Shown here piece by piece: positions 1,704-64,000 of a stretch of 64,000 nt of DNA. The notes beneath the pieces are model-generated. The model was not told where the DNA came from. It saw nothing but the letters and a program-made list of their open reading frames with translations, and searched no databases. The position numbers and the translations under genes are program-made. Where the stretch lies: contig URHW01000004.1 in NCBI GenBank assembly GCA_900547775.1, positions 4,806 through 68,805 on the forward strand, given 5' to 3'. Source of the stretch: an uncultured Mycoplasmatota bacterium. GTDB lineage: Bacteria; Bacillota_I; Bacilli_A; RF39; UBA660. Each line of letters starts with the position of its first letter. The first letter of the stretch is position 1.

Positions 1704-3578
1704 CTATTTTACAACGTAAGGATCTTCTGAGGTGCCAGAGCCAGTTACTTCAACATTAGATGCAAGAGAAATTGATGGTCTCAAACCGATAACGGAACCA
1801 GCATAACTATAGAAAAGTTTTCCTGAACTGATGGCCCATAAGTAAGTATTAGAACCGAAATAACTAGGAGATAATGACCACCATACAGTAGTTCCTGTAT
1901 TCTCATATATATACGTAGAACGATTATAAGTATTATAAATAGAGCCAGAAAATGCTATTTCGTCTGCAGTTAATAAGCCTATTTTATAGGTTAGATTTCC
2001 ATTACCATTTGTTGTATCACTTACAGTAAATTTAGATAACTTCCCTCCATTATTATCGTCTAGACATTTTAGCGTTGGTATTTTAGTAGAAACTAATCTG
2101 ATACGCACGTCATAATTTGTAAGATCAGTTCCATATCCATGACCACTAGAAATACTTTTATCATTGCACCATATTGTATCTGCTAGTTTACTTTCATATT
2201 CAGTTAAATTATTTTTATACCAAGTTTCTAAATTTGTAAGGATTGTACTTTTATTTGTATTTGCATGCGTGCTTGCATAATCACTTGCACCAGTTGTTCC
2301 ATACATAAAACCAATATATGCGTTATCGTCATAACTTGAATTAAATGCAGTTTTATACGAATTTTCAGAATACCTTGCAAAAGCTGCTGTTTTACTATTA
2401 TTTGATGCAGAGCAAGGATTAGAAACATTAGATATATTATCATTATGGAGTACAAGTTTAATAGAACCATCACCAGTTATTCTTACTATTCTCCAACACT
2501 TATTTGCAAACTGTACGTAATTATTATTTATAGCACCTCTAAAATAATAACTAGTTCCATAATCATCTTCAGCGCTTGCTAAAATTGCCTCTGTTGTATT
2601 TTTATTGGAAGTTAATTTCTTATATACAAAACTATCTGATGTAGCACTTACTACATAATATACACTGTCTAAATTAGTTGTAGTCTGCATATCTCCTGCT
2701 GTACTTGAGCCTGTATCTGATAAATTCTGACTAGTCAAATATTTACCAACTAAACTTGAATATGAATTAGCATATGTATTATTTGTTACTGCTGTTCCGG
2801 TTAAATCAAACTTCGTACCATTTGCTGTCCACCCTGTACCATATGTTACATAATATGCTTGATATGCTGATGATACAGATGAAGTTTCACTTTCTGTGTC
2901 ATCCAAAGTATATGCACTAACTTCACTACCAGGCACTGTTAAAGGCTCTACTACTTTATTATCAGCAAGTATCGCTTCGTTAAGTGGCATTCCATCAGAT
3001 GCTTCACCAATAACTACTATCTTACCCTCCCATGATTTACCTAATCCTTGATCTAGTGTTACATTTTCATCCATCCAAAGTCTTAAATCAAAACTCTTCT
3101 CTTCATTAGCTTGTAACCCTGTATTAACAATTATATACCCTTTTCTATTATTATCTAAATCTGTTAACTTCTTACTACCTAGTACTATAGACTGTCCATC
3201 AGTAGTTCCTTTAGGTGATATATTAACCTTAATATAATTATCATCTAAATATTTTGTTCCTAAATTACCTCTATGTTCACTATCAATTGTAATATATAGT
3301 CTTATATAGCTACTACAATTATTTTTAAGTGTAAAAGTAAATGGCGTTCCTTTCAATCCTTCACTATCAACTACTGGATAAGCATTCTCTAAAACAATCT
3401 TTTCAGTGTTTTCAGTTAAACTAGTATCAAAACAAGTCCTTGATACAAGAGTATTATTATCACTTTGTTTTAAAAACAATTGAAAAAATGCATATGATAC
3501 ACCAATAATACATATCACAGTAACTAAAAGAGAAAAATAAATCCTAATCTTCTTTTTATCTTTAATAATTTCTTCCAT
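1704..3578 (-). CDS. Paralog 1 of a hypervariable-C-terminus surface protein family (membrane-anchored; DUF1566/C-type-lectin-like C-terminal domain inferred)
   Basis: N-terminal signal-anchor. The N-domain (TRTC..TLTE..PFTFTLKNNC..FDLRLW) is shared with 9959-11542 and 19816-21687. The conserved core FANKCWRIVRITGDGS..LHNDN and a C-terminal YWWSLSP..RPSISL cassette are present. Confidence 0.7.
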   Translation of the reverse strand: MEEIIKDKKKIRIYFSLLVTVICIIGVSYAFFQLFLKQSDNNTLVSRTCFDTSLTENTEKIVLENAYPVVDSEGLKGTPFTFTLKNNCSSYIRLYITIDSEHRGNLGTKYLDDNYIKVNISPKGTTDGQSIVLGSKKLTDLDNNRKGYIIVNTGLQANEEKSFDLRLWMDENVTLDQGLGKSWEGKIVVIGEASDGMPLNEAILADNKVVEPLTVPGSEVSAYTLDDTESETSSVSSAYQAYYVTYGTGWTANGTKFDLTGTAVTNNTYANSYSSLVGKYLTSQNLSDTGSSTAGDMQTTTNLDSVYYVVSATSDSFVYKKLTSNKNTTEAILASAEDDYGTSYYFRGAINNNYVQFANKCWRIVRITGDGSIKLVLHNDNISNVSNPCSASNNSKTAAFARYSENSYKTAFNSSYDDNAYIGFMYGTTGASDYASTHANTNKSTILTNLETWYKNNLTEYESKLADTIWCNDKSISSGHGYGTDLTNYDVRIRLVSTKIPTLKCLDDNNGGKLSKFTVSDTTNGNGNLTYKIGLLTADEIAFSGSIYNTYNRSTYIYENTGTTVWWSLSPSYFGSNTYLWAISSGKLFYSYAGSVIGLRPSISLASNVEVTGSGTSEDPYVVK

Positions 3579-3645: not shown

Positions 3646-4260
3646 TTAATTCTTCTGTATTTCTTCAATTATTTTATAAACTTCCGTATAAGGATTAGTT
3701 TCAACCGTCTGTAGTATTCTTCCATTTTCTAATTGAAATTTTTCTAATCTTTTAGCATTAACAATTGCTTTATTTGTATTATTGCAAATCAAAGGATAAA
3801 TATCATAACTTTTATTATAACCAGCACAATGTTTTTTTAATTCTTCTATTACTTCATCATTACTGGAATATTGCGCCGTAGAATAACGATAATGCAATAA
3901 AAACCAAACCTCTACACAAGGTGCTGATACTATAGGAATAATATTATTTTCCTTTGCTAATCTTATTGCTTCACATATTTGTGAATTTTTTTCTGGCTTA
4001 ACATCCGTATCAAACATACAAAATGCTCTGTCATCACCAGTTAAGTCTAAAGATTCTTCTTTAACTTTTGCTATAGTATGCTCCACTAAACTAATTGGAT
4101 CAGTATCATTACCAGGAACTTTTCTAATCACATAATTATTATCTCTTCCATTATAATTTCCTAAGTAGATATCTTCTGTTTTATTTTTACCTTCATAAGA
4201 AACTAATATTGCTCTTTTTGATATTCTGTTTTTTCTATTTCTCTGCCTATCACTACTCAT
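3646..4260 (-). CDS. RloB-like (Toprim-like) protein, partner of AAA_21 ATPase
   Basis: 204 aa. The N-terminal R-rich segment is followed by ILVSYEGKNKTEDIYLG, resembling the RloB consensus ILIVCEGEKTE. It overlaps the upstream ATPase by 4 nt. Confidence 0.6.
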   Translation of the reverse strand: MSSDRQRNRKNRISKRAILVSYEGKNKTEDIYLGNYNGRDNNYVIRKVPGNDTDPISLVEHTIAKVKEESLDLTGDDRAFCMFDTDVKPEKNSQICEAIRLAKENNIIPIVSAPCVEVWFLLHYRYSTAQYSSNDEVIEELKKHCAGYNKSYDIYPLICNNTNKAIVNAKRLEKFQLENGRILQTVETNPYTEVYKIIEEIQKN

Positions 4261-5492
4261 AAATCAAAATTATTAGTTAAAAATGGAATTGCACCATACC
4301 TCCCTAACAAATATCCTTTCTCTACATTTTCAAGTTTTCTTACTGAGAAATCATCTAAAGGATATATTGCACTAGAACCATCATCCGGATTCTTTTCTGC
4401 AAACCAAATCTGATCTCTACGTAATATTTCTAAATTAAGTAAATTAGTATCATGTGTATTAAATATTAACTGAGCACCATTCTTATTAACTTCTGGATTA
4501 TTAAATATCTCAACCAAATACTTTACTATAAATGGATGTAAACTCTTATCAAATTCATCATAAATAAGAACCTTACCATTATCTAAAACATCTTTTAAAA
4601 CTGGTATAAAAGAAAATATAACCTGTGTTCCAAGTGATTCTTCATTAATATCAAATTCATACTTATGTCCATGAATCTCATGAACCGTACTTACTTTAAA
4701 TAAAGATGAATTTAAAGGAATAATAAACCTAAAAGTATCTGGTACTCTATTTAAAATATCTTCAGTCATCTTCTCTTCAGTAACTTTATAATCATCAATA
4801 TTAAAATCTGCTTTTTTTAAAAATCCAAGTGCAAAATCTCTTAACTTATTATCTTTATCTTTTGAATACATATTATAAGAATAATTATTTACTTGTTCAT
4901 AAGACATAATAACACCTAACTTCTCAGTTAAGAAATCAAATGCTGGTTTGGTCTTATCATAATTCCAGTTAGTTGCTGTAGCTACAAAAAATTTATTTGC
5001 TGAATTCTTACTCTTGATATCATTCAATATTCGCTCATCACTAGCATTAAAAGAATATTCATTAGTATTCTTTCTTTCAAATATCTTAGTAGGTCTACCA
5101 TTAGGATAATAATATAAGCTCTCTTCATAAACATATAAATTATCAGCACTAAAAGCATAAACATATCTTATACCATCGTATATAAATTTTATTTCAAACT
5201 CACTAGGTTTATCAGAGGTATCTTCACTTAACTTAAAAGGACTAATTGGCATTGCCATATTAGGAGTTCTGTAATTAGACCCTTTAATTATTGAACCAAC
5301 AATTGCGATTATTTTAAATAAATTAGTCTTACCAGAAGCATTAGCTCCATATAAAGCAGTAGTTCTTAAAAGCCTCTCTCCACCAACTTCCATAACATTA
5401 TTTAAAAGTTCCTTATCACTTGAAGCAACCATACTAAATGTATTCTTATCCTTAAAAGATAAAAAATTTGTAACACTAAACTCTATAAGCAT
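4257..5492 (-). CDS. AAA_21/ABC-type ATPase (OLD/PARIS-AriA-like), candidate defence ATPase
   Basis: Walker A GANASGKTNLF. The central region is long, and C-terminal Walker B/D-loop-like motifs (LIYDEFDKSLHP, FNTHD) are present. It is translationally coupled to the RloB-like gene. Confidence 0.6.
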   Translation of the reverse strand: MLIEFSVTNFLSFKDKNTFSMVASSDKELLNNVMEVGGERLLRTTALYGANASGKTNLFKIIAIVGSIIKGSNYRTPNMAMPISPFKLSEDTSDKPSEFEIKFIYDGIRYVYAFSADNLYVYEESLYYYPNGRPTKIFERKNTNEYSFNASDERILNDIKSKNSANKFFVATATNWNYDKTKPAFDFLTEKLGVIMSYEQVNNYSYNMYSKDKDNKLRDFALGFLKKADFNIDDYKVTEEKMTEDILNRVPDTFRFIIPLNSSLFKVSTVHEIHGHKYEFDINEESLGTQVIFSFIPVLKDVLDNGKVLIYDEFDKSLHPFIVKYLVEIFNNPEVNKNGAQLIFNTHDTNLLNLEILRRDQIWFAEKNPDDGSSAIYPLDDFSVRKLENVEKGYLLGRYGAIPFLTNNFDL

Positions 5493-7521: not shown

Positions 7522-9243
7522 CTACTTTACAATAAATGGATTACTACTAGTTCCATTTCCACCAATAATCTTAGCATTCTTAAGTTGTAATGTTGGTCTT
7601 ACTTTATTAGTATCAGTAACAACACTAGCAGTATCAGTACCACCACCATATGATTTATATGATCCACCAGTAGCAACTGCATAACTACTACTATTAACAT
7701 AATTATTATAAACATGAGCTTCCGGAGTACCATAGTTAAAGTTTGAAGTATCCATATTAAATCCAGTAATCTCAATTAACCAGAAATTCTTACCAGCATT
7801 ACTATTATTAGTTAAATAACTTCTATAACAATTATTACCATTACAATTAGCAACTTTACTATAATCATTCTTACTCATAAGAGCAACCTTAGTATTAAGT
7901 GATCCACCACCAAATACAGTACCAGAAATATATTGATTCTCTACATATCTAGGATTAACTGCACTATAGAAACTATTAACTACATTATCCATAGTATAAC
8001 TAAATGAACCATTCAAATTATGTCCACCTAATCCTTGATAATAATATCTTCCACCATTACAGCATCCACTATACTTACAAGCACCAACTTGTCCATAAAC
8101 TAAATCAGTTCTATTATTATAACTATAAGGATCATTAGCAATTATCTTAATACTATTACCTTTTCTATGATAAATTCTAAATACATAAGAATTATTATTA
8201 AACTTCAAATAATTACTTTCAACTTCACCTTTGTAATAACACTCATCACTCTTACCTGTTTCAGGTGTACAATCATTATTAATAAAATCAATCAAATTAT
8301 CACTAACAACATAATCTAAAGTAAATGGACTAGGAACAGAACCATCACTATTAGTCTTATTATAAGTAATTATTGCACTCTTACTACCAATTGGTTCAGT
8401 AACAAAACCTTTCATTGTAAAATCTGTAATATTATCTACAGGACTAGTAAATTCTTTCTTAGTACCATTCTTATAAGTAACAATTAATGTGACCTTAGTA
8501 TCCTTAGCCCCAAGAACTATCTTATTACCATTCTCATTTAAATAAGCCGTAAAACTATCAACATCAGTCTCACTAGCAGCAACATATACATTTCTAGTCT
8601 TACTAACACTCTTACCATTATAAGTATAAGTATAAACAACACTATAAGTACCAGCCTTAGTAACATCAACATTACAACTAGTAACCTTAATACTATCTCC
8701 CTTAACTAAAGGATAAGTCTTACTAGCATCATTTAAATCAGTTAATACTAACTTACCATACTTAGGATCACTACCATTTAAACCCTTAAACTCATTTTCT
8801 TCAGTACACCAATTACTACCACTAGCATCATAAGCTAAATAAATAGAATCAGCAACTAAATAAGTATTAGTTTCATCTGGTGGATTAAGTTCAAACTCTG
8901 TAGCACCAGTACCACCATTTAAAGTAACACGAACTATTTCATCATCTTTATACTTTTCGCTAGTTTCCTTATTAGTAATATCTTCACTAAGTAGTCCATT
9001 ACTCCTCAAATCACCAATAGTAATATCTACAAAATTATATCCTTCATATAGTTTCTCGATCTCACTCTTATTAGCACTAACATAAGCATCTGCTGCACTA
9101 AGTATCTGCTTAACTGTATCTTTATTATTCTCTTTAGGATCATTCTTACCAACCAAATTAACAATAAAAATACCAACAATAACTGCAATCAGTGCTATAA
9201 CCGCAATTATCTCTACTAATGTAAATCCTTTCTTATTCTTCAT
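7522..9243 (-). CDS. Prepilin-type N-terminal cleavage/methylation domain protein (large type IV pilin-like)
   Basis: N-terminus MKNKKGFTLVEIIAVIALIAVIV is a class III signal (G-F-T-L-V-E plus a hydrophobic helix). The C-terminal region is a 540-aa beta-rich segment. Confidence 0.75.
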   Translation of the reverse strand: MKNKKGFTLVEIIAVIALIAVIVGIFIVNLVGKNDPKENNKDTVKQILSAADAYVSANKSEIEKLYEGYNFVDITIGDLRSNGLLSEDITNKETSEKYKDDEIVRVTLNGGTGATEFELNPPDETNTYLVADSIYLAYDASGSNWCTEENEFKGLNGSDPKYGKLVLTDLNDASKTYPLVKGDSIKVTSCNVDVTKAGTYSVVYTYTYNGKSVSKTRNVYVAASETDVDSFTAYLNENGNKIVLGAKDTKVTLIVTYKNGTKKEFTSPVDNITDFTMKGFVTEPIGSKSAIITYNKTNSDGSVPSPFTLDYVVSDNLIDFINNDCTPETGKSDECYYKGEVESNYLKFNNNSYVFRIYHRKGNSIKIIANDPYSYNNRTDLVYGQVGACKYSGCCNGGRYYYQGLGGHNLNGSFSYTMDNVVNSFYSAVNPRYVENQYISGTVFGGGSLNTKVALMSKNDYSKVANCNGNNCYRSYLTNNSNAGKNFWLIEITGFNMDTSNFNYGTPEAHVYNNYVNSSSYAVATGGSYKSYGGGTDTASVVTDTNKVRPTLQLKNAKIIGGNGTSSNPFIVK

Positions 9244-9818: not shown

Positions 9819-9958
9819 AATCACCACCAATGTTGAAAACACGTACCAAAAACCTCTACTATTATTATTTATCTCTCTCGCCTGTCCGTTTGTCACTCGA
9901 AGGGTTTCTCAAAGGCTTTTGCGACTGACGATTTCGACCTTATAATTCTTTGCCCTGT

Positions 9959-11542
9959 TTACATACTTATTATGTACGGGGAACTACTGGTTCCTTCTCC
10001 GGTTACGTTGGTAGAGGGCTTAAGAGAAATCGAAGGGCGGACACCGGTGGTGCCATACACGTCGCCACTGCCGAAGCCGCCAAGGCTGCCGACAACGGCC
10101 CAAACGCGAGCGCTGTCACCACTGAAGCTGTAAGGAGACAAGGACCACCAATAATCACTAGTAGCATTTTCTTGTAAATATGTTGTAGAATTAACTAGAT
10201 TAAAAGCGTATCCAGCATATGCTAACTCATCTGCTGTTATTAAACCTATTTTTGAATTTATTTTACTTAGTTCTCCATTACATTTTAAACTAGGGCCCGT
10301 ACCTCCAGCACTTTCACTTGCGCTTACTAATCTTTGCGTAGCACCATAATATGTTTTATTTTTGCCATATCCAAAACCATTTGGTGCCATTCTCCATGGA
10401 TCAAATGTTGTATCTGTTACATTGGTTTTGTCATTGCACCATACAGTATCAGCTATTTTATCAGCATAATCTTTTAAATTATTTGTATACCAAGTTTCTA
10501 AATTAGTTAGTATTGTACTATTATTTGTATTTGCATGTGTAGCTTCATATGTACTAGAACCTGATGTTCCATACTTAAATCCTACATAAGCATTGTCATT
10601 CCAGTTTTCATTAAATTTACTTGTATATGTTGTACTAGAGTATCTTGCAAATGCTGCACTAGCACTATTATTAGCTGAATCACAAGGATTAGCTACTTTT
10701 GTAGTATTATCATTATGTAAGATAAGTTTTACTGAACCATCTCCACTAATTCTTACTATTCTCCAGCACTTATTAGCAAACTGTACATAGTTATTTGTTA
10801 CAGCTCCTCTAAAGTAGTATGATGTACCATTATTATCTTCTGCAGATGCAAGTAATGCTTCATCAGCAGTAGATACTGCTGCTCCTGGTTTAGTTATTGG
10901 AGCCTTAACTTCATTATTAGCTAATATAGTCTCTGCAAAAGTAGGTTCATCCGCAGCAACTATACTAACAACTATCTTACCTTTCCAAGTTTTATTTAAC
11001 CCTTGTTCATTAGTTGTTTCTGAATCTAACCAAAGTCTTAAATCAAAAGATTTTGCTTCTTTATTTTTAAGTCCTGTGGTTTTAAGTACATATCCTTGCG
11101 TATTAGTATCTACTTCCCCTAAAGAAAGTGTACTCAAGATTACTGAACTGCCATCATTAGTCCCTTTAGTTGATAAATTAGATTTAACATAATTATCTTT
11201 TAAATAAGCAGTGTTAGTACTAGTTCTATATTCACTAACTAGTGCTATAGTCACTTTTACATAACTATCACAATTATTAGTTAATGTAAAAGTAAATGGT
11301 GATTGTTTAAGTCCATCTTCATCACTAATTGGAAAAGCATCAGATAATACAATTTCACTTGTCTCTTCTGTTAAAGTGGTATTTAAACAAGTTCTTGTAC
11401 CAATAACATTACTATTAGTTTGAGTTTTAGTAATTCTATAATAAGCATAAGTTACTCCGATAAGTACTAATACAGTTACAAGTAACCCATATAAAATTGT
11501 TCTTTTCTTCTTTTCATTCTCTATAATATCCATTAGCCTCAC
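9959..11542 (-). CDS. Paralog 2 of the hypervariable surface protein family; putative DGR target
   Basis: Same N-domain and core as paralogs 1 and 3, without the roughly 100-aa central insertion. The C-terminal cassette at about 10030-10135 is GC-rich and NNC-codon-rich. Confidence 0.75.
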   Translation of the reverse strand: MRLMDIIENEKKKRTILYGLLVTVLVLIGVTYAYYRITKTQTNSNVIGTRTCLNTTLTEETSEIVLSDAFPISDEDGLKQSPFTFTLTNNCDSYVKVTIALVSEYRTSTNTAYLKDNYVKSNLSTKGTNDGSSVILSTLSLGEVDTNTQGYVLKTTGLKNKEAKSFDLRLWLDSETTNEQGLNKTWKGKIVVSIVAADEPTFAETILANNEVKAPITKPGAAVSTADEALLASAEDNNGTSYYFRGAVTNNYVQFANKCWRIVRISGDGSVKLILHNDNTTKVANPCDSANNSASAAFARYSSTTYTSKFNENWNDNAYVGFKYGTSGSSTYEATHANTNNSTILTNLETWYTNNLKDYADKIADTVWCNDKTNVTDTTFDPWRMAPNGFGYGKNKTYYGATQRLVSASESAGGTGPSLKCNGELSKINSKIGLITADELAYAGYAFNLVNSTTYLQENATSDYWWSLSPYSFSGDSARVWAVVGSLGGFGSGDVYGTTGVRPSISLKPSTNVTGEGTSSSPYIISM

Positions 11543-11780
11543 CTACTATAAACAATTATAAATGATAAGTATCTTTTAATCAAGGCTCTTTAATTTAATT
11601 TAATGAAAATTATAAAAAAAAGATAACTTCATGATATCAATAGTTATCTTACTTAAATCTTGCTTAAATCCTACTTAAATTAATTTTTATAATACATCTA
11701 ATTTCTTTATAATAATGAGTATTAAAACAATATTATAACTTTACCAAAAACCTACAAAATTATTTGACATTTACATTTAA

Positions 11781-11958
11781 AAGCAGCAAAAAACAGCAAA
11801 AAAGCAGCAAAAAAGCAGCAAAAAAACAGCAAAAAAACAGCAAAAAGCAGCAAAAAAGAAGCAAAAAACAGCAAAAAACAGCAAAAAGTAGCAAAAAAAC
11901 AGCAAAAAGCAGCAAAAAAACAGCAAAAAACAGCAAAAAAACAGCAAAAGTAGCAAAA
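11781..11958. repeat. Tandem A-tract repeat (about 16 units of cagcaaaaaa(c/g), 10-12 bp period)
   Basis: Direct reading. Phased A5-7 tracts lie between the stop of 11962-13632 and the promoter region of paralog 2. Confidence 0.9.
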
Positions 11959-13737: not shown

Positions 13738-16700
13738 TTAACTCTGAGTTCCATCATTTGTTTCTACTGTTATATCATAATCTGTATCATAATAGTAATT
13801 ACTAAATAAAACATTTGAATTATTAATAACTGTTCTTATACCTAAGTCTCCTCTACCATATATAGCGTTTCTTTCAATAGATTTAACACTATCAGTTAAA
13901 GTTATTGTCTTAAGTATAATATTATTCATAAGTGCATAACTACTAATATTTTCTGCATCTATTACATATTCTAACTTCTCATAATAACTAGGAACACTTA
14001 TTAAAGTCGTACCATCCTTATTAAACAATACTCCATCTCTGCTACTATAATTATTATTATCAGCACTAACTATAAATTTATTTATATTTAGGTTTATTCT
14101 TGATTCTATACTAGTAACAGAGCTTGGCACACTTAAACTCATCTTCTTATCATCAGCACTTACTAATCCATTTAATGAGTCATATATAATTCTCGTTGTT
14201 CCTTCTCTAATTTGTACATCTCCTTCAAGTTTATCAGGAACTAAAATAAGTGTATCCCCATTATATAATATATTATTTTCTACTTCTAAAGTACTTGCTT
14301 TTATTTCTTTAAAGTTAACTCCCCTAAATGGTGCTATACCTACATAAGCATTTCCTATATCAGCACTCTTACCCTTAAAGTTATAAAACGCATAATCTCC
14401 AATAGTTTGAACACTTCTAGGAATAACAATATCACCTAAACTACTATCTATAAAAGCATAATCTCTAATATATTCTAAGCCTTCATTAAATGTTATATTA
14501 CTTAAACTAGTATTTGTACTAAAAGCATACTGCTCAATAGTTCTAACCGAACTTCCTATAGTAACACTAGTAAGACCTAAATTATTAGCAAATGCTCTCT
14601 TACCAATCTTTTCACTATTAACATTAAGCATCTTTAAACTAGTACTTTCAAAGGCCGATGTTCCAATAGATTTAACACTTGATGGAATATTAATATTAGT
14701 AATACCAGTTCCATAAAATGCATTATTACCAATACTACTAACATTATTCCCAATAACAATATTATTAATTTGGCTCGCATAATTATCCCAAGGAGCGCTT
14801 ATAAAATCTTGCATATCTCCGGTTCCATACACGCTTAATGTATAACCATTACTTCCATCTATCACTTTGTTACTATATAAAAATGCGATTACATCTTCTT
14901 TATTATTCTTACCGATCTTATAATAATTCACATATTCATGCTCTGCACTTACTATCTCACTAGTAGTACGCTTTTGATTAACTAAGCCATATATATCTCT
15001 AACTGCACCATCACTTAAAGTTAATGTAAATAGTCCATAATAATTATTTGCTTTTACCACTACTTCAAATCGGTATCCATTAGTAATATCTTTAACCTTA
15101 GTAACACTATCAACTAAAACACCATTACTAGCACTAATCATACCCTTATCAAGAGATGCACTAGCAAGTCCTCCACCAATATCCGTACATTCCAAATACG
15201 CCTTACCAGTTCCATAAATATCACTTGGTACATCAGTAAACATACAACTAGGTGCTGGATTATCTGCAATAGCATAATAAGTAGTTCCTTTATTTCTACT
15301 ATTAATTGTAACTGTACTTCCAATATTTTTAATGTTTCCACCACTAGGACTTGTACTCCATCCCTTTTTAGTTATTCCATCTGGAACACTAAAGTCAGGT
15401 AATGTAACTGTGCATCCTGAACCTAACCTACTTTCTGTACAAGTAAGTGTTGTCTCACCAAGAGTTCCATAAGTTCCCCCATTTAAATTAATTTGAAATA
15501 CATTAGTAACATATATAGGTATTCTAAGTTCTCCACAATCTGCACCTTTAATAACTAAATATGTAGTTCCAGTTCTGTATGATCTTATCTTTATCTTATC
15601 AGTAAACACCTTATTAATATTATCAGGTTCATATGAGAAATTACTTTGTGATACCACATTAACACTTGCTGTCCAACTATTACTAACACTATAACTAAGT
15701 TTGCCAGTAGCAGCATAACTAATTGTAATCTCTGCACTTTCCCTATTAACACCTAAAGTAATTGAATTTAGATTACTTTTTAAAGAATAAACATTATAAT
15801 CAAGTTCAGCAAGTCTATTACCATTATTTTCTCTTAAGTAAATAACTGCTTTACCCGTATTAGTTCTTCCTAACTTATAAGGAAGACTACTATCATACTG
15901 CGTACTAGTAACATTATGTCTTACTAATGACATCTGTCCATATCTTCCACCATTATTGGCACAATTATTACTTAAACTAATCGCTGGCTGACTAGGATTA
16001 TTACCTAAATCTACTAAATAATAATCAGTCATACTATCAAACACTATATTATTCTTCGTACTATCACAAGTCTTACCACTACTATCTAATACTCCCAAAT
16101 TAATCCCATGAATTGTAATGGTATTATTACTAAGATCAGAACCAACCTCTTTACACACTTTAGTAACCGTATTATTATTCTCTCTAAAATATAAACTTGT
16201 CTTATAAATAACTGGTATAAATATATCTAATGAGCCATCTCTTACACTCTTAACATTAACTTTAAAATCTTCTACATTATCATAAATATCTTCACCATTA
16301 GTGGTCTCTAAAATAACTGTATCATTTTCTATATGACAATTTAAATAATCAGTATTTTCTTCATATCCACCATAAGTACTTTTCTTATAAACAGTGCAAG
16401 TAAAATCATTACTAGAGCTTCCGTTTATCTTAGACTTAAACTGTGTCTTATCATTATTTTGTCTTCTTCCCCCATTAAAATATAAATATTCTGGTATATC
16501 TGTATTATCTAATTTAATATTTGAAACATTAACCTCAAAACTAGTTTCACCACAAATTGATCCTTTTATTCTAATGGTAACAGTTCCAATACTATTTCCT
16601 TTTATATAAAAGTAATTCTGATTATTTAAAGTTATTGTACTTCCAAATGAACTATTATTTGCTGATATACTAGCAGCACTACTATCAACTGATACAGTAA

Positions 16701-17769
16701 TTCTTCCTGTACCACCAGCCTTAAGTTCTACTCTCTTAGCAGCCTCACCTACAATAACATTCGTAATATGCGTTACTACATCTAAATCATAAACTTCTCT
16801 AGTTATAACCTTACTAATACCTGCATGATCTTCAGTTATCGTAAAACTTTTCTCACCTGTACTAGTACCACTATTCATATATAGAACGTCTCCCTTTATA
16901 GTAGCATTCAAATCATCACTAATCCCACTAAGAGAAAACTCGCCATAATTCTTCCCCGTAATCCTAAAAAGTTCATTAGTAAGTGTTTTCATACACATCT
17001 TAGGTGTATATCCATCTATATCATAATTAACAACATACACCCCTAAATTCATATGTCGATATAACTTCTTTTCTGCTCCTTCATCATCTCTGTATGTACC
17101 AGTTACTTGTACTTGATAATTTCCATCACTTCCAGTACCATTATCATTTAAAGTAATAACTAAATCATCACCAACAACTTTACAACTAAATGGACCTGTC
17201 GCTTCACATGTAATACTTTTAAAAGTTCCTTTAGTATAAATCTTAGTTTTAAATTCCTCATGAAGTCCCCAATAAAAATCTTTCTTTGTAGTTCCTAAAT
17301 TAAGTGAATAATTACCATCAACTGCTGGACATGAATAATTCTTATTTTTTATATCATAAAAAGTAGCACTTATCGTTACTGTAGATGGATCATAACATAA
17401 AAGAACATTACCACTGAGTCTTCCACCAGTAACTGGATTGCCAACATAACTAGCATCATCTTTAGTAGTATCATACTCTAAATAACCTAGACCTACTAAA
17501 TCATCAACACTTATTATGCACTCATCATACGCATCATCATTAATAACTCCAGATTCTAACCCATTAGTACACTTCTGATAAGTATTAATATTATCTTCAC
17601 CATACTTAGAAGCACTAGTTTCAATAGTACTAATCTTAGAATTTAAAATACTCTCTTTTGTATTTTTTGAAATATTAGTAACCGCTGGTATCAAAATAAC
17701 CATAATAATTGCAAGTATTGTAATAACTGCAAGAAGTTCCACCATTGTAAAACCCTTATGGTTCTTCAT
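13738..17769 (-). CDS. Giant prepilin-type N-terminal domain protein with Ig-like middle region and C-terminal BspA-type leucine-rich repeats
   Basis: N-terminus MKNHKGFTMVELLAVITILAIIMV is a class III signal. The C-terminal 350 aa carry repeated IPSSV.SIG..AF LRR_5-like units. Confidence 0.75.
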   Translation of the reverse strand: MKNHKGFTMVELLAVITILAIIMVILIPAVTNISKNTKESILNSKISTIETSASKYGEDNINTYQKCTNGLESGVINDDAYDECIISVDDLVGLGYLEYDTTKDDASYVGNPVTGGRLSGNVLLCYDPSTVTISATFYDIKNKNYSCPAVDGNYSLNLGTTKKDFYWGLHEEFKTKIYTKGTFKSITCEATGPFSCKVVGDDLVITLNDNGTGSDGNYQVQVTGTYRDDEGAEKKLYRHMNLGVYVVNYDIDGYTPKMCMKTLTNELFRITGKNYGEFSLSGISDDLNATIKGDVLYMNSGTSTGEKSFTITEDHAGISKVITREVYDLDVVTHITNVIVGEAAKRVELKAGGTGRITVSVDSSAASISANNSSFGSTITLNNQNYFYIKGNSIGTVTIRIKGSICGETSFEVNVSNIKLDNTDIPEYLYFNGGRRQNNDKTQFKSKINGSSSNDFTCTVYKKSTYGGYEENTDYLNCHIENDTVILETTNGEDIYDNVEDFKVNVKSVRDGSLDIFIPVIYKTSLYFRENNNTVTKVCKEVGSDLSNNTITIHGINLGVLDSSGKTCDSTKNNIVFDSMTDYYLVDLGNNPSQPAISLSNNCANNGGRYGQMSLVRHNVTSTQYDSSLPYKLGRTNTGKAVIYLRENNGNRLAELDYNVYSLKSNLNSITLGVNRESAEITISYAATGKLSYSVSNSWTASVNVVSQSNFSYEPDNINKVFTDKIKIRSYRTGTTYLVIKGADCGELRIPIYVTNVFQINLNGGTYGTLGETTLTCTESRLGSGCTVTLPDFSVPDGITKKGWSTSPSGGNIKNIGSTVTINSRNKGTTYYAIADNPAPSCMFTDVPSDIYGTGKAYLECTDIGGGLASASLDKGMISASNGVLVDSVTKVKDITNGYRFEVVVKANNYYGLFTLTLSDGAVRDIYGLVNQKRTTSEIVSAEHEYVNYYKIGKNNKEDVIAFLYSNKVIDGSNGYTLSVYGTGDMQDFISAPWDNYASQINNIVIGNNVSSIGNNAFYGTGITNINIPSSVKSIGTSAFESTSLKMLNVNSEKIGKRAFANNLGLTSVTIGSSVRTIEQYAFSTNTSLSNITFNEGLEYIRDYAFIDSSLGDIVIPRSVQTIGDYAFYNFKGKSADIGNAYVGIAPFRGVNFKEIKASTLEVENNILYNGDTLILVPDKLEGDVQIREGTTRIIYDSLNGLVSADDKKMSLSVPSSVTSIESRINLNINKFIVSADNNNYSSRDGVLFNKDGTTLISVPSYYEKLEYVIDAENISSYALMNNIILKTITLTDSVKSIERNAIYGRGDLGIRTVINNSNVLFSNYYYDTDYDITVETNDGTQS

Positions 17770-17779
17770 AAAATCACCT

Positions 17780-18316
17780 CTATTCTGCTATCTTAAAATA
17801 AATATTAGATGTAAAATCATTTCCATTAGAAGCAAGCATTTTAACCCTTAACTCCCTAAGACTAGTATTTTCAAACTCCTTATAATTAACAAAATCATTC
17901 TCATCTATTATTGCTCCATCAGGAACTTTACGCACAAAATTACGTGTCCTCTCATCACTAGTTAAATTATTATTAACATATTCATATTTAATATATCTTG
18001 CATCATCAGTTAATGATAACTTCTTTACAATAAGTTCATTTAAATTACCTTCCCTAAAAGCATTAAAAGTAATTGTAACACTTTTCTTCCCATCTAAACT
18101 CACACTCTTGACTCCATATCTATTAATATCCGTACTAATCGTATCAATTAAAATGGTATCTAATACTTCAAAATCAACTTCTAACTTACTCTTCTTATAT
18201 AACCCATTAACTGTAATTAATAATCTTGTAATAAAAATAAGAATAATTGACACAAGCACAATAGATACAATAATCTCAACAAGAGTCATCCCCTTCTTAT
18301 TCATCACTATCACCAA
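17780..18316 (-). CDS. Pseudopilin (prepilin-type N-terminal domain)
   Basis: N-terminus KKGMTLVEIIVSIVLVSIILIF. It overlaps the upstream gene by 20 nt. Confidence 0.7.
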   Translation of the reverse strand: MVIVMNKKGMTLVEIIVSIVLVSIILIFITRLLITVNGLYKKSKLEVDFEVLDTILIDTISTDINRYGVKSVSLDGKKSVTITFNAFREGNLNELIVKKLSLTDDARYIKYEYVNNNLTSDERTRNFVRKVPDGAIIDENDFVNYKEFENTSLRELRVKMLASNGNDFTSNIYFKIAE

Positions 18317-19815: not shown

Positions 19816-21687
19816 TTAATTTATAATATAAGGATTATCACTCGTACCATTACCAGTTACGCTGGTCGAAGATATAAGAGAAATGGCCGGGCGAACACCA
19901 GTGTCGCCGTCAATGTTGCCGTCGCGCAAGTCACCCGAGCGCACGCCCCGATCGAGAGTGATGATGCTATCGAAGTAGCTAGGCGACAAGGACCACCACC
20001 AATTCGTCCCAGTATTTTCTTGTAAATATGTAGAACGATTATAATAACCAGATACCGACCCAGCAAATGCTATTTCATCTGCAGTTAATAATCCTATTTT
20101 ATAAGTTAAGTTACCATTACCATTCTTTGTATCATCAACAGTAAATTTAGATAATTTTCCACCATTATTATCATTTGGACATTTTAATGTTGGCTGTTTA
20201 GTGGAATCCAATCTATTATATGCAGCATAATTTGTATACTCTGTCCCATAACCTAATCCTCCACTTACTGTACTTTTATCATTACACCAAATTGTATCAG
20301 CTAGTTTATCTTCATATGGTGCTAAATTTTTTGTATACCATATCTCCAAATTTTTTAGTATTGTACTTTTATTTGTATTTGCATGTGTACTTGCATAATC
20401 ACTTGCTCCAGCAGTACCATACATAAATCCTACATAAGCATTATCATTATGGTTTGTATTAAATGCACTTTTATATGTTTCACCAGAGTATCTTGCAAAT
20501 GCTGCATTAGTACTATTATTTGCTGATGAACAAGGATTAGCTACTTTTGTAGTATTATCATTATGAAGAACAAGTTTTACTGAACCATCGCCTGTTATTC
20601 TTACTATTCTCCAGCATTTATTAGCAAATTGTACATAATTATTTTTTACTGCCCCTCTAAAGTAGTAAGATGTTCCATAATCATCTTCTGTACTAGCAAG
20701 TAATGCTTCTGTTGTATTTTTATTTGATGTTATTTGTTTGTACGTAAAACTGCTTGATGTAGCGCTTACTACATAATATATACTGCTTAAATTAGTGGTT
20801 GTTGTCATTGATCCTGCAGTACTTGAACCAGAACTTGATAAAGAACTATATGGCAAATATTTTCCAACTAAGCTTGAATATGAATTAGCATATGTATCAC
20901 TTGTTACTGCAGTACCAGTTAAATTAAAGTTTGTCCCATTTGCTTCGTATCCAGTACCATAAGTTATATAATATGCTTGAGATGTTGATAATACACTTGT
21001 TGACTGACTTTCAACATCATCTTTAGTATGAGCATTTACTTCTTTTCCTGGTGTTGTAAGTGGTGATTTTATCTCGTTATTTGCAAGTATTGCATCTTTC
21101 AATGTAACCTCTTCATTAGCAGCTACTCCAACAACGACTATCTTACCTTCCCAGTTCTTATTAAGTCCATCTGCAATAGATGTTTCACCATCCATCCATA
21201 CTCTTAAATCGTAACTTTTCTCTTCATTTGCTTTAAGTCCAGTAGTTACTAAAATATAACCTTTATTTGTGCCTTCCAATTCAGTTAAAGTCTGACTTCC
21301 AAGAAGCACGGAAGAGCCATCAGTCGTTCCTTTGCTAGATAAATTAACTTTTAAAAAACTATCCTTTAAGTATGCTACATCAGTACTTGTTCTATACTTA
21401 CTATCAATCGTAATATACACTTTAACATAACTATCACAATTATTTTTTAAAGTGAATGTAAATGGTGTTTGTTTAAGACCATCTTCATCACTTATCGGAA
21501 AAGCATCACTTAAAGTTATTTTAGATGTTTCTTCAGTAAGCGTTGCATCTAAACAAGTTCTAGTTCCAATAACATTACTATTAGTTTGCGTTAATTTCAA
21601 TCTAAACCAAGCATAACTTACACCCATAAAAACAACTAAAGTTATAAGTAATCCATAATAAATTTTTATTTTCTTTTTATCTTCCAT
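19816..21687 (-). CDS. Paralog 3 of the hypervariable surface protein family; putative DGR target
   Basis: Full-length architecture like paralog 1. The C-terminal cassette at about 19890-19985 is GC-rich and NNC-rich. Confidence 0.75.
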   Translation of the reverse strand: MEDKKKIKIYYGLLITLVVFMGVSYAWFRLKLTQTNSNVIGTRTCLDATLTEETSKITLSDAFPISDEDGLKQTPFTFTLKNNCDSYVKVYITIDSKYRTSTDVAYLKDSFLKVNLSSKGTTDGSSVLLGSQTLTELEGTNKGYILVTTGLKANEEKSYDLRVWMDGETSIADGLNKNWEGKIVVVGVAANEEVTLKDAILANNEIKSPLTTPGKEVNAHTKDDVESQSTSVLSTSQAYYITYGTGYEANGTNFNLTGTAVTSDTYANSYSSLVGKYLPYSSLSSSGSSTAGSMTTTTNLSSIYYVVSATSSSFTYKQITSNKNTTEALLASTEDDYGTSYYFRGAVKNNYVQFANKCWRIVRITGDGSVKLVLHNDNTTKVANPCSSANNSTNAAFARYSGETYKSAFNTNHNDNAYVGFMYGTAGASDYASTHANTNKSTILKNLEIWYTKNLAPYEDKLADTIWCNDKSTVSGGLGYGTEYTNYAAYNRLDSTKQPTLKCPNDNNGGKLSKFTVDDTKNGNGNLTYKIGLLTADEIAFAGSVSGYYNRSTYLQENTGTNWWWSLSPSYFDSIITLDRGVRSGDLRDGNIDGDTGVRPAISLISSTSVTGNGTSDNPYIIN

Positions 21688-38155: not shown

Positions 38156-38231
38156 TGGTGCTGAAAATAGGACTTGAACCTACAACCTACGCGTTACGAG
38201 GGCGTTGCTCTACCTATTGAGCTATTTCAGC
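38156..38231 (-). tRNA. tRNA-Thr (anticodon CGU), CCA encoded
   Basis: Manual cloverleaf: acceptor GCTGAAA, D-arm GCTC/GAGC, anticodon loop CTCGTAA, T-arm GTAGG-TTCAAGT-CCTAT, 3' CCA. Confidence 0.7.
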
Positions 38232-47755: not shown

Positions 47756-49045
47756 CTAATTTACAACATAAGGTTTTTCCCTCGTACCATTTCCGGTTAC
47801 GTTGGTCGTCGATTTAAGAGAAATCGAAGGACGAAGCCCGTAGGCGTTGCTCACGTTGAAGCCGACACCTTGTCCGCCAATGCCCCAAACGCTAGCGTTG
47901 CCGCCACGGAAGCCGTCAGGAGACAAAGACCACCAATAAGTGGCTGTAGCATTTTCTTGTAAATATGTTGTAGATACATTTTTATTATAAGCATATCCTG
48001 CAAACGCTAGTTCATCTGCTGTTATTAATCCTACTTTTGATGTTATTTTACTTAGTTCTCCATTACATTTTAAACTAGGGCCCGTGCCTCCAGCACTACC
48101 ACTAGTACCTACTAATCTCTTGGTAGCGCCATAATATGTTTTATTTGTACCATATCCTAATCCAGTTGCATTTCCACCATATGACCATGGATTATAACTT
48201 GTATCTGTTACATTTGTTTTATCATTACACCATATACTATTATCTATTACACTTTCATATGCTGTTAGATTATTATTATACCATGTTTCTAAATTAGTTA
48301 GTATTGTACTCTTATTAGTGTTTGCATGTGTAGCTTCATATGTACTAGAGCCTGGTGTTCCATACTTAAATCCTACATAAGCATTATCATAATAGTTTGT
48401 ATTAAATGCACTTTTATATGTTTCACCAGAGTATCTTGCAAATGCTGCACTTGCACTATTATTTGCAGCATCACAAGGATTAGCTGCTCCAGTTGGATTA
48501 TCATTATGTAAGATAAGTTTTACTGAACCATCTCCACCAATTCTAACTATTCTCCAGCACTTATTAGCAAATTCTACATAGTTATTTGTTACTGCACCTC
48601 TAAAGTAATAAGATGTTCCATAATCATCTTCTGCAGATGCAAGTAATGCTTCATCAGCAGTAGATACTGCTGCTCCTGGTGTGGTTATTGGAGTCTTTAC
48701 TTCATTATTTGCAAGTATTTTATCTTTAAATTTCAGATTAAATGAAACATTGCACCTCACATTACCAGCACTTATATCATTAAAAGACACTACCCATTTT
48801 GTGCCATTCCATGTAGCCTTTGCTCCTGCGTCTTGTTTTATTCCATTTCTAGTACACTCTACAGTTGCCATATACTTATTTGTAGTTGGAAATGTAGTAC
48901 TAGCTTTTCCATCAATAACAGCTGCTATGATAGGTCCATTATTATCTTCTAGTAAATCTTTTTTATCACTTTTACCATATATAAACATTCCAGAAATAAT
49001 TATCGTGCATACAATAATTAAACTAATTATTTTCTTCATATTCAT
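47756..49045 (-). CDS. Paralog 4 of the hypervariable surface protein family (distinct short N-domain); putative DGR target
   Basis: Shares the core (FANKCWRIVRIGGDGS) and C-terminal cassette. The N-terminal 110 aa are different. The cassette at about 47830-47925 is GC-rich and NNC-rich. Confidence 0.75.
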   Translation of the reverse strand: MNMKKIISLIIVCTIIISGMFIYGKSDKKDLLEDNNGPIIAAVIDGKASTTFPTTNKYMATVECTRNGIKQDAGAKATWNGTKWVVSFNDISAGNVRCNVSFNLKFKDKILANNEVKTPITTPGAAVSTADEALLASAEDDYGTSYYFRGAVTNNYVEFANKCWRIVRIGGDGSVKLILHNDNPTGAANPCDAANNSASAAFARYSGETYKSAFNTNYYDNAYVGFKYGTPGSSTYEATHANTNKSTILTNLETWYNNNLTAYESVIDNSIWCNDKTNVTDTSYNPWSYGGNATGLGYGTNKTYYGATKRLVGTSGSAGGTGPSLKCNGELSKITSKVGLITADELAFAGYAYNKNVSTTYLQENATATYWWSLSPDGFRGGNASVWGIGGQGVGFNVSNAYGLRPSISLKSTTNVTGNGTREKPYVVN

Positions 49046-62958: not shown

Positions 62959-62994
62959 AAAAATCTCCCTTCCTAAAATAAAAAAGCCCATAAT

Positions 62995-63235
62995 CTAAGG
63001 ACGAGTCAAACCCGTGTTACCACCTTAGTTTATGAACTTATTTCATACACTCATTATCTATAACGTAGATACCGTACTATACTTATCCTATAGTAACATC
63101 CGAAGTGATCCTTAATACTTCCAGTATACTTACTTTCACCACAACGTAAGCTCTCTAAATACCTTCCATATCAACGTCTTCATCAACTGCTTATGCCATA
63201 AATTATATGCCAATAACACATACTTGTCAAGCACA
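62995..63235 (-). promoter_or_regulatory. T-box riboswitch leader upstream of ileS
   Basis: Minus-strand AAGGTGGTAACACGGG core at 63013-63030, followed by a hairpin/T-run. Confidence 0.6.
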
Positions 63236-63239
63236 AACT

Positions 63240-64000
63240 TTATTGTACTACATATGGTTCTTCTGAAGTACCAGAACCGATTACTGTAATTGATGGTGAC
63301 AAACTTATTGCTGGGCGTACTCCGATTTCGTCACTCACACTATCATTAAGCAACATGCCGTCAATAACAAGCCAAACGCATGGCATATTTCCCAAATCAG
63401 AATCAGGAGACAACAGCCACCAATAATCATCAGTAGCATTTTCTTGTAAATAAGAACCAGCTCCAATTAAATTATATGCGTACCCAGCAAATGCTACCTC
63501 ATCTGCGGACAATAAACCTATCTTTGTTGTTACTTTACTTAAAGTACCATTACATTTCAAACTCGGACCAGTACCACCAGTACTACCACCACCATTAACT
63601 AATCGTTTAGTGGGATTATAATAAGTTACATTTTCACCATAACCCAAACCAGTTGGATTCCAACCCCATGGATCATATGTCAAATCTGTCACAATACTTT
63701 TATCATTACACCATACCGTGTCAGCAATTTTACTTTCATAAGTTAATAAATTATTATTATACCATTTTTCTAAACTGGTAAGTATCGTACTTTTATTTAT
63801 GTTTTCATGAGTTTCAGCGTAACTAGTAGAGTATGGCGTTCCATACATAAAGCCTATGCCAGCATTATCATCAGAGATTTCATTAAATTGACTTACATAT
63901 GAAGTTCCAGAATATCTTGCAAACGCTGAAGTTGTACTATTACTAGAAGAAGAGCACGGGTTTGAAACATTTGAAGTATTATCATTATGAAGCACTAATT
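63240..64000 (-). CDS. Paralog 5 (C-terminal part; gene continues beyond window) of the hypervariable surface protein family
   Basis: Shares the LHNDN..NPC..AAFARYS core. The C-terminal cassette is degenerate (WLLSP, MPCVWLVIDGMLLND). Confidence 0.65.
   Translation of the reverse strand, partial: LVLHNDNTSNVSNPCSSSSNSTTSAFARYSGTSYVSQFNEISDDNAGIGFMYGTPYSTSYAETHENINKSTILTSLEKWYNNNLLTYESKIADTVWCNDKSIVTDLTYDPWGWNPTGLGYGENVTYYNPTKRLVNGGGSTGGTGPSLKCNGTLSKVTTKIGLLSADEVAFAGYAYNLIGAGSYLQENATDDYWWLLSPDSDLGNMPCVWLVIDGMLLNDSVSDEIGVRPAISLSPSITVIGSGTSEEPYVVQ

Follow-up and report, generated by a model that had tools for sequence, protein, structure and literature searches.

What accounts for a short GC-rich patch at the 3' end of a gene in an otherwise AT-rich stretch of bacterial DNA, and is the patch still being rewritten? 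The window, i.e., the whole 64,000-nt stretch of DNA that was analysed, has a GC content of 30%, and within the patch this value rises to 65%. The gene, one of five paralogs in the window, is paralog 2. The patch is probably the variable region (VR) of a chromosomal target of a diversity-generating retroelement (DGR), a known type of system in which error-prone reverse transcription rewrites a binding site. The target probably lies remote from its cassette, is written in trans, and carries an allele that is now static. Two features define the setting of the patch:

9959–11533, minus strand: paralog 2, the target gene of the DGR, with its ATG at 11533 and a length of 524 aa
9950–10177, plus strand: antisense ORF of 75 aa, opposite the adenine-poor, GC-rich VR

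An extension of the gene to a GTG start at 11542, as given in the ORF list, was rejected; the exact protein look-up was empty, and the called gene begins at the ATG. A membrane anchor lies at the N-terminus of the product and a domain with a C-type-lectin-like fold at its C-terminus, and the VR forms the C-terminal end of this variable protein. [quoted passage not shown] Pfam and NCBIfam profiles assigned no family to paralogs 2–4 at E ≤ 0.01, and a search of PDB chain sequences gave no match. Over the window, Rfam detected only a T-box leader and tRNA, none of them close to the VR.

A first-pass annotation of the raw sequence had quoted 10030–10135 as a cassette with a GC-rich interior and NNC-dominated codons. 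The island is indeed there, although each quoted end is a few bases off, and the coding string is exact on the minus strand, from TAC at 10132–10130 through CTT at 10024–10022. The GC content of this segment (0.651) is the maximum among all 106-nt windows (mean 0.298, sd 0.055), and only five overlapping positions (10030–10035) reach it. C-ending codons account for 21 of the 37 codons in the patch and for 21 of 461 in the remainder of paralog 2 (Fisher p = 6e-16), whereas adenine content is 11% and 39%, respectively. The antisense ORF is open because the adenine-poor, GC-rich VR leaves the opposite strand without stop codons. The earlier view of this ORF as a by-product is reasonable; a counterpart also covers the VR of a cassette-adjacent target in a related locus (L008). 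The sequence of the ORF would alter with each VR allele.

The four other paralogs in the window allow the patch to be compared at equivalent sites:

1704–3578, minus strand: paralog 1, same domain, with an AT-rich tail (GC 0.36, NNC 0.21)
19875–19998, minus strand: VR-like GC island of paralog 3 (gene 19816–21687), NNC-rich
47814–47935, minus strand: VR of paralog 4 (gene 47756–49045), of the same TR family, decayed
63240–64000, minus strand: paralog 5, truncated by the window end, with M, E, and other non-NNC residues in its tail

GC islands occur at the same site in paralog 3 (19821–20040) and paralog 4 (47761–47980) and are absent from paralogs 1 and 5. Paralog 1, which has the same domain and no GC island, is an internal control: the island is not needed for the fold. 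The tail of paralog 5 is not a diversified VR, because it contains M, E, and other non-NNC residues. A leap in GC content from about 30% to 65% across roughly 130 nt is what would be expected if a foreign GC-rich DNA fragment had been inserted or transferred into an AT-rich gene. Such an origin is hardly credible, since the island stays in frame and preserves the domain's conserved scaffold residues, occurs again at the corresponding codons of paralogs 3 and 4, and has the limits of the homology to the template repeat (TR) described below.

The comparison with paralog 4 did not bear out two statements of the first-pass annotation. The interior of the patch had been called unrelated between paralogs, yet paralogs 2 and 4 agree at the positions where the TR has no adenine (TTC, GG, GCT, GTTTGG). 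The 3' flank had been described as nearly identical in these two genes, but it consists of 17 identical, 7 divergent, and 15 identical nucleotides. Its identity of 0.85 over 40 nt does not stand out above the gene-wide mean of 0.80, many windows reaching 0.90–0.97, and the flank is thus no more similar than the rest of the genes, the very outcome that the annotation had named as refuting this point.

The TR query was predicted from the VR alone, with the variable codons set to AAC. The predicted TR was found in two MAG contigs from related gut Bacilli, and in both it is followed by a MutS_I-like gene of 120 aa, a bAvd-like gene of 117 aa, and an RVT_1 reverse transcriptase. In these related genomes and in genomes of the same species, the TR carries AAC/AAT at the variable codons and adjoins a DGR reverse transcriptase, which upholds the earlier proposal of a DGR-type homing cassette. 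The species TR reads TGGTGGTCCTTGTCTCCTAACAACTTCAATGGTGACAACGCTAACGTTTGG... The MutS_I-like protein scores 27.5 bits (cutoff 20.6) and the bAvd-like protein reaches only 18.8 bits against a Pfam cutoff of 40; the putative Avd assignment therefore combines a sub-threshold match with gene position. The order and sizes of msl and avd are kept in all 14 cassette loci that include both genes (L007–L010, L019–L028). The RVT_1 matches have E values of 9e-12 and 1e-13, and the reverse transcriptase contains the motifs IGNMTSQ ([I/L]GxxxSQ) and YMDD. Annotated phage DGR reverse transcriptases, those of Bordetella phages among them, share 31–35% identity with it. In the species of the window, the TR and msl-avd-RT genes adjoin another paralog, between serS and polC, and the reverse transcriptase (P0255) occurs on 92 contigs.

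The 64-kb window itself yielded no TR in an adenine-tolerant scan, whose sole match, an A-tract tandem repeat at 11779–11949, was spurious. A scan of the window for reverse transcriptase motifs was negative, and tblastn with the RT, msl, and avd proteins gave best E values of about 0.2 or worse. A scan of IMG/VR for the TR pattern returned no match. The JGI metagenome scan returned only two TRs of the L007 type; its pattern demanded AACTTCAAC, where the species TR has AACTTCGAC, so that the cognate TR was undetectable and the scan is uninformative for sample 3300029103.

Alignment to the TRs of L007, L008, L009, and L022–L028 defined the limits of the VR and, together with the region past the stop codon, the following elements:

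10020–10150, minus strand: VR, 131 nt homologous to the TR, TGGTGGTCC...TCTCTTAA
10047–10132, minus strand: mutable core, spanning all TR-adenine-templated positions (the interior of the cassette in the first-pass annotation)
10020–10045, minus strand: IMH-like 3' end of the VR, GGTGTCCGCCCTTCGATTTCTCTTAA, from the comparison of VR and TR
9839–9958, minus strand: conserved GC-rich element directly past the stop codon; blastn homology reaches 9839
9892–9916, minus strand: degenerate copy of a predicted hairpin (RNAalifold)

The 5' boundary had been placed at WWSLSP, and TR homology does begin there, at TGGTGGTCC. On the 3' side, identity had been expected to continue for about 40 nt past the cassette; TR homology extends only 26 nt beyond the last mutable adenine and stops at TCTCTTAA (10020). 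The second identical block of the flank, accaacgtaaccgga, falls outside the TR homology and is ordinary conservation of coding sequence. The IMH-like boundary is evident from the TR comparison, whereas the comparison of paralogs does not reveal it. In the TR, the counterpart of the IMH-like end is GG(C/T)GTCCG(T/C)CCTT-ATTTTCTCTTAA, which is IMH*-like (CGA vs AT). All VRs have TC(G/A)ATTTCT where all TRs have TTATTTTCT; in the longer form, CCTTC(G/A)ATTTCTCTTAA occurs in 14 of 14 VRs examined and CCTTATTTTCTCTTAA in 14 of 14 fully read TRs. VR and TR are thus distinguished at fixed positions of this 3' end, as are IMH and IMH*, and by sequence the 3' end of the VR is a putative determinant of directionality. 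The window-type VR 3' end carries GGTGTCCGCCC. The window VR departs from the species TR at two positions within the GC-rich part of the IMH-like end, and the codons just past this end are altered in the window (AAGCCCTCT instead of AAGTCGACG).

A hairpin past the stop codon had also been suggested. The element at 9839–9958 is conserved, being common to the cassette-adjacent targets of DGR-bearing relatives and to a remote ortholog of paralog 2 (L017). The hairpin predicted within it, GTCCCGAGAAACCCTTCGAGGGAC, is invariant in eight other loci, but the RNAalifold alignment contains no covariation, and three pairs (47-74, 49-71, and 52-69) are broken in the window and in L018; the structure is accordingly an unproven candidate. 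DNA folding of 9880–10045 gave z = -3.4. No conserved inverted repeat was found directly after the IMH-like end in the loci compared. A hairpin formed by GGAACCAGT(A/G)GTTCC was rejected, since it is perfect in L007 and unpaired in the cassette-adjacent targets of L008 and L023–L025 and in the remote ortholog; its pairing in L007 is treated as coincidental coding sequence.

The differences between VR and TR are concentrated at adenines. Compared with the species TR (L024, L022–L028), the window VR is changed at 23 of 34 adenines and at 5 of 84 other positions (p = 9e-12), and these five non-adenine differences are all synonymous. Cassette-adjacent VRs differ from their own TRs by 16–22 changes at 33–35 adenines and by 0–1 change at 80–84 other positions; within the same species, the values are 18–22 of 34 and 0–1 of 84. 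At the non-adenine positions, VR and TR have the same strain-specific markers. Among 91 orthologs of paralog 2, there are 80 distinct VR alleles, and the entropy is 2.74 bits where codons contain adenine and 0.21 bits where they do not. Adenine-only changes can account for 96.7% of the residues in these alleles, T/A/S/P at the ACT codon among them. Diversification of paralog-2 VRs at the species level is clear. In the proposed mechanism, cDNA would replace the VR, anchoring at the conserved 3' end (CCTTCGATTTCTCTTAA); AAC/AAT codons of the template would become NNC/NNT, and adenine-free scaffold codons (TTC, GGN, GCT, GTT, TGG) would remain fixed. A VR written in this manner would be adenine-poor and GC-rich in a genome of 30% GC.

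The other GC islands of the window fit this TR less closely. The VR of paralog 4 has a 9-nt deletion and 11 non-adenine differences from the TR at 80 positions. The island of paralog 3 fits poorly (17 differences at 80 non-adenine positions). A scan of all fetched loci for a template of the paralog-3 VR gave A-rich noise only, and a guessed TR of the paralog-3 type had no match in IMG/VR.

Gene conversion among paralogs or silent cassettes, of the pilE/pilS type and without reverse transcription, could also give rise to a variable gene end. The window does hold five paralogs with conserved flanks, whole alleles have been swapped between strains at the paralog-1 and paralog-3 positions, and the VR of L018 is the same as that of the window in its 3' two-thirds and differs in its 5' third, as after a crossover. 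Nevertheless, no direct or inverted repeat or donor cassette matching the VR interior was found in the window, and variation limited to TR-adenine positions beside a reverse transcriptase is a pattern that recombination among paralogs cannot yield. Switching of this kind is therefore very improbable as the source of the VR. Recombination probably moves finished alleles between strains and does not create them.

The position of paralog 2 relative to the cassette is evident from a sister strain. Its ortholog L017 is about 97% identical to the window DNA, with the same synteny, and the same record (ERZ28759208:contig_13135) also holds the cassette (L024). The contig is 1.15 Mb long, and the distance along it between the cassette and the paralog-2 ortholog is about 1.0 Mb; were the contig a closed circle, the two would be about 128 kb apart. 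Compared with the TR of L024, the L017 VR is changed at 25 of 34 adenines and has no mismatch at the 84 non-adenine positions, which makes paralog 2 a remote target. Since the TR and msl-avd-RT genes adjoin another paralog at that distance, paralog 2 is written in trans. The cassette was seen in the sister strain and in relatives, and it may also be present in the window's own strain.

The allele carried by the window is much less variable than the species as a whole. In the cluster of protein variants to which it belongs (about 74 contigs), 13 of 14 members have an identical VR, the sole difference being a G-to-A point change, and ongoing diversification of the allele was thus not seen in assembled sequences. 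Consensus assemblies hide minor variants, and low-level diversification within samples is possible. The VR is also identical at the DNA level in six loci; these were retrieved by exact protein identity, which favours the common VR, a bias that the analysis of cluster members removes in part. By comparison, the cassette-adjacent VR is different in each of six strains whose reverse transcriptase is the same. The five synonymous non-adenine differences from the species TR indicate that the window VR was not recently rewritten, though the strain's own TR allele could differ instead. We infer that the allele is static, having remained unrewritten during the spread of the clone and begun neutral drift. 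Rewriting of remote targets seems to be episodic and rare, and the stasis could reflect selection on the allele or a low trans-homing rate instead of lost competence.

With the same VR origin, paralog 2 might still be an active remote target in this very strain, with the TR and reverse transcriptase outside the 64 kb and the VRs identical because the clone spread recently, because of selection, or because homing is infrequent. This has some, though clearly the smaller, likelihood. The frequency of P0255 shows that the cassette is common in the species, and the IMH-like end is present. Contigs of this clone break off about 108 kb beyond paralog 2, at approximately the place where a cassette-adjacent paralog would interrupt an assembly, which is suggestive and does not amount to evidence. 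Moreover, the VR allele of paralog 4 is unchanged in 11 near-identical proteins, and such long-lived alleles suggest that remote rewriting is generally rare, not lost. On the other hand, the window VR has stayed constant while cluster members differ at 0–11 residues elsewhere in the protein, flanking DNA has diverged by about 0.5%, and alleles have been swapped at neighbouring paralogs. Its five non-adenine differences compare with none in L017 and 0–1 in cassette-adjacent VRs, two of the five lie in the GC-rich part of the IMH-like end, and the predicted downstream hairpin is broken at three pairs. The reading of a static allele is hence preferred.

A stronger proposition, and a doubtful one, is that the window VR is a naturally "locked" DGR product, refractory to rewriting, that has spread with one clone through many human hosts. 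The two mismatches in the IMH-like end, the change of AAGTCGACG to AAGCCCTCT, and the decayed downstream hairpin would be candidate causes. If so, a DGR-selected specificity could become fixed through decay of the recognition elements of a remote target, with the cassette still diversifying the target next to it.

Collectively, a DGR target was recognisable from raw sequence composition alone, as an adenine-poor, NNC-rich island at the 3' end of a gene, and the template predicted from the VR was accurate enough for the cassette to be recovered from public sequences. A prevalent lineage of human-gut Bacilli with small genomes is shown to contain a chromosomal DGR of the MSL/Avd type. This DGR writes into several C-type-lectin surface proteins that are paralogous to one another, and along the contig at least one of these targets is separated from the cassette by about 1 Mb. 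No two of the strains examined have the same cassette-adjacent target, whereas remote alleles are unchanged across many hosts; this contrast bears on the frequency of natural trans-homing and on the fixation of DGR-generated specificities. The known DGR mechanism is unchanged by these results, and the type of system is already known.

The closest parallel is the DGR of Treponema denticola (TvpA and seven scattered targets), which is likewise chromosomal and non-phage, with one TR serving adjacent and remote paralogous targets; remote targets of this type have been described (PMC5758913). The Treponema DGR has an HRDC accessory gene (Architecture C) and targets an FGE-sulfatase-type domain, whereas the DGR described here has MSL and Avd, a DUF6273-type target domain, and a host from a small-genome gut Bacilli lineage. 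The order target-TR-msl-avd-RT is that of MSL-containing DGRs (Architecture D, Wu et al. 2018, PMC5758913), in which MSL genes always accompany avd (PMC5758913); here, the Avd match is weak (18.8 bits). As in the DGR of Bordetella phage BPP-1 (Mtd), mutagenesis is adenine-specific, and a few fixed positions (CGA vs AT) set the VR 3' end apart from the TR, as with IMH and IMH*. Unlike the BPP-1 element, the DGR is not phage-borne (the IMG/VR TR scan was empty, and the closest phage RTs are 31–35% identical), the TR lies upstream of the accessory genes, and no hairpin directly follows the IMH-like end, the unproven candidate lying about 95 nt further, past the stop codon. The target domain also recalls the tentaclins, phage DGR targets with a DUF6273/C-lec domain: DUF6273 is a C-type-lectin-like domain bearing the VR (PMC10743442), some orthologs have precomputed DUF6273 matches, and the tail of the L008 target scores 30.2 bits. 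In tentaclins, which are phage receptor-binding proteins, the C-lec domain is N-terminal; here, it forms the C-terminus of a membrane-anchored protein whose chromosomal gene lies among pseudopilin-like genes.

The window carries five paralogs on the minus strand, and in paralogs 2, 3 and 4 a GC-rich island occupies the equivalent place, after WWSLSP. The relevant features are as follows, where VR denotes a variable region and TR a template repeat.

Features of the window
1704–3578, minus strand: paralog 1
9839–9958: conserved element directly after the paralog 2 stop codon, defined by homology
9959–11533, minus strand: paralog 2
10150 (TGGTGGTCC) to 10020 (TCTCTTAA), minus strand: TR homology (VR) of paralog 2, from TR comparison
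10132–10047, minus strand: mutable adenines, from TR comparison
19816–21687, minus strand: paralog 3
38159–38231: one tRNA gene
47756–49045, minus strand: paralog 4
62994–63195: T-box leader upstream of a 917-aa ORF at 60238–62991
63240 to past the window end, minus strand: paralog 5

Paralog 2 is an ORF of 524 aa whose C-terminal end is ...PYIISM*, with the island at its 3′ end. The codon string listed in the first-pass annotation matches the minus strand at 10022–10132 exactly, and the antisense ORF it placed at 9950–10177 is present. The GC content of 10030–10135 is 65.1%, unmatched by any other 106-nt stretch of the window (mean 29.8%, s.d. 5.5%). Codons ending in C make up 21 of 37 in the island versus 21 of 461 elsewhere in the gene (p = 6e-16), and adenine falls from 39% to 11%. 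Since this domain is encoded by ordinary, AT-rich codons in paralogs 1 and 5 (0.36 GC and 0.21 NNC codons in the paralog 1 tail), the composition of the island is not forced by the protein fold. The island is a genuine VR of a diversity-generating retroelement (DGR), as that annotation had proposed: a TR and a reverse transcriptase (RT) cassette were found in relatives and in the same species.

Within the window, a both-strand scan for a repeat matching the island except at the repeat's own adenines returned only an unrelated A-tract tandem array, no RT motif is present, and tblastn with the RT, MutS-like (msl) and Avd-like (avd) proteins gave no match. The array (11779–11949; ~16 copies of AAAAACAGCA(A), period 10–11 nt, 21-nt double unit) produced false matches in adenine-tolerant scans and was rejected as a template. 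It lies between the stop of an SLFN/AlbA_2 gene and the region upstream of paralog 2, is conserved in loci L001–L006 and L017, and its phasing with the DNA helical repeat suggests intrinsically bent DNA.

More than 7000 homologues of paralog 2 exist; the best 120 share the tail WWSLSP-xxFxGxxAxVWxVxGSxGxFxxxxVxx(T/A/S/P)xGVRPSISL, in which x is almost exclusively a residue of NNC codons. A TR was predicted by turning the variable codons to AAC, and the resulting query (GCNAACGTNTGGAACGTNAACGGNAGC), searched against one genome per species, matched two MAG contigs. In both, a gene resembling paralog 2 is followed, ~500 nt downstream, by a perfect copy of the tail that is rich in asparagine, WWSLSPNNFNGSNANVWNVNGS(N/S)GNFNNNNVNNTNGVRP. 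This TR is followed, in order, by a 120-aa MutS_I-like gene, a 117-aa bAvd-like gene (sub-threshold match) and an RVT_1 RT in which IGNMTSQ and YMDD motifs occur. Scanning IMG/VR with the TR pattern returned nothing.

At three loci, the cassette-adjacent VR differs from its own TR at 16–18 of 33–35 adenines and at 0 of 80–82 other positions. VR and TR also have strain-specific non-adenine markers in common (e.g., GTCGCCT and AGCTCTGGC in the TR-bearing locus L008), showing that TR-to-VR copying continues. The 91 TR-length tails among the best 120 homologues comprise 80 distinct alleles, with an entropy of 2.74 bits at 19 adenine-containing codons versus 0.21 bits at 14 adenine-free codons. Adenine-only changes can reach 96.7% of their residues; among these, the ACT codon shows exactly T/A/S/P, and AGC mainly S/G.

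The last 26 nt of the VR form an end resembling a homing boundary (IMH), reading CCTTC(G/A)ATTTCTCTTAA in VRs versus CCTTATTTTCTCTTAA in TRs. Past 10020, VR and TR are unrelated; therefore, the second block of the flank described in the first-pass annotation (accaacgtaaccgga) lies outside the TR homology and represents ordinary coding conservation. Nor is there a special flank identity between paralogs 2 and 4: the value of 0.85 does not stand out above the gene-wide mean of 0.80, and many windows reach 0.90–0.97. The element at 9839–9958 is homologous to sequence 3′ of the cassette-adjacent target in relatives and of the same-species ortholog L017. A hairpin anticipated downstream of the stop is indeed predicted (GTCCCGAG...CTTCGAGGGAC) and intact in eight loci, but three of its pairs are broken in the window and in locus L018. 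It shows no covariation, so its structure and any homing role are putative. No conserved hairpin was found directly 3′ of the IMH-like end.

A JGI contig, Ga0169220_100145, is 100% identical to the window across 21.5 kb. L017 and the window agree in gene order and show ~97% DNA identity, but differ in the paralog 2 VR. The record of L017, ERZ28759208:contig_13135 (1,145,030 bp), also holds a cassette, L024, with the order serS, 471-aa target, TR, msl, avd, RT (P0255), Mbeg1-like gene and polC; the RT gene lies at ~42.5 kb and the paralog 2 ortholog at ~1,058 kb. The TR is near-invariant across seven L024-type loci, and the L017 VR matches this species TR at 84 of 84 non-adenine positions, with 25 of 34 adenines changed. 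Owing to a different N-terminal third, the cassette-adjacent target reaches only 57% identity with paralog 2; thus, it is the remote locus to which the 120 close homologues are orthologous. Collectively, the shared contig, the fit of the L017 VR to the TR and the allele pattern of the orthologues establish that paralog 2 is a remote target written in trans.

The cassette-adjacent VRs of L023 (8162–8293) and L024 (8165–8296) exceed those of L025–L028 by 2 nt and the TR by 3 nt, and a frameshift within the VR truncates their target gene there (471 aa vs 520). L017, the remote ortholog in the genome of L024, is intact. These indels could stem from error-prone homing or from long-read assembly errors. 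A conserved GC-rich block of ~105 nt (GTGCGTGGCAAGCGCGCATGCGGATTCTCCTTTTGGAGCAATACGCGCTTG...) separates the cassette-adjacent target from the TR in all cassette loci (L007 750–850, L024 8470–8580). Downstream of paralog 2, neither the window (between ~9815 and 9839) nor L017 has it. The block may belong to the DGR transcript or may be a structured RNA.

Relative to the species TR, 23 of 34 adenines are changed in the window VR, which also has five non-adenine differences. All five are third-position transitions in its 3′ third, and two of them fall where the IMH-like end is GC-rich. The same VR is identical in DNA at six loci from different cohorts, and in 13 of the 14 full-length members of its 90% cluster (~74 contigs), which differ elsewhere by 0–11 residues; the lone exception has one G-to-A change. 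In contrast, six strains with the same RT carry six different cassette-adjacent VRs. We conclude that remote VRs are rewritten rarely here and that the window VR remained static while the clone spread. Proteins more than 10% different elsewhere can have one VR in common (P0026 and paralog 2; P0013, P0014, P0017 and P0042), and L018 has only the 3′ two-thirds in common with the window VR. Evidently, homologous recombination shuffles finished VR alleles, or else the surrounding gene bodies, between strains.

The paralog 4 VR is more decayed, with a 9-nt deletion and 11 of 80 non-adenine differences, and its allele is likewise common to near-identical proteins, unchanged. The paralog 3 island (19875–19998) is VR-like, with 63% GC over 32 codons after WWSLSP and 59% NNC, and belongs to a different class (...GTGCGCTCGGGNNACTTG...) shared with the L003 allele at the paralog 1 position. 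It fits the identified TR poorly (17 of 80 non-adenine differences), and neither the fetched loci nor IMG/VR yielded a template for it; there may be a second TR or DGR.

Some paralog 2 orthologues match DUF6273, already known from gut phages, where it is a C-type-lectin-like domain of DGR targets (PMC10743442). The target genes sit among pseudopilin-like genes with LRR and Ig domains, a neighbourhood that fits a putative surface-binding role. A prepilin-type N-terminal methylation motif opens several genes near paralogs 2 and 3 (7522–9243, 13738–17769 and 17780–18316), whose products are very large (1343 aa, with BspA-type LRRs; 573 aa, with an Ig-like domain); the DGR targets thus lie inside what looks like a pseudopilus or adhesin locus. 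Between an arylsulfotransferase gene and paralog 1, an AAA_21 (AbiEii-like ATPase) and RloB gene pair (3646–5492) is present in most strains and absent from L002 (16008–17948), where the paralog 1 allele also differs; the pair resembles a small variable island of the defence type. The T-box leader and the tRNA gene are consistent with a Bacillota host.

The local interest lies in the absence of the cassette from the window, the frozen allele and its contrast with the ever-changing cassette-adjacent target. The DGR-type system itself is already known, and paralog 2 adds a remote-target example. The cassette has the same MSL-plus-Avd arrangement as Architecture D of Wu et al. 2018 (PMC5758913). 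Phage DGR RTs share only 31–35% identity with the RT of this cassette. As for paralog 2, remote targets are already known for non-phage DGRs such as that of Treponema (PMC5758913).
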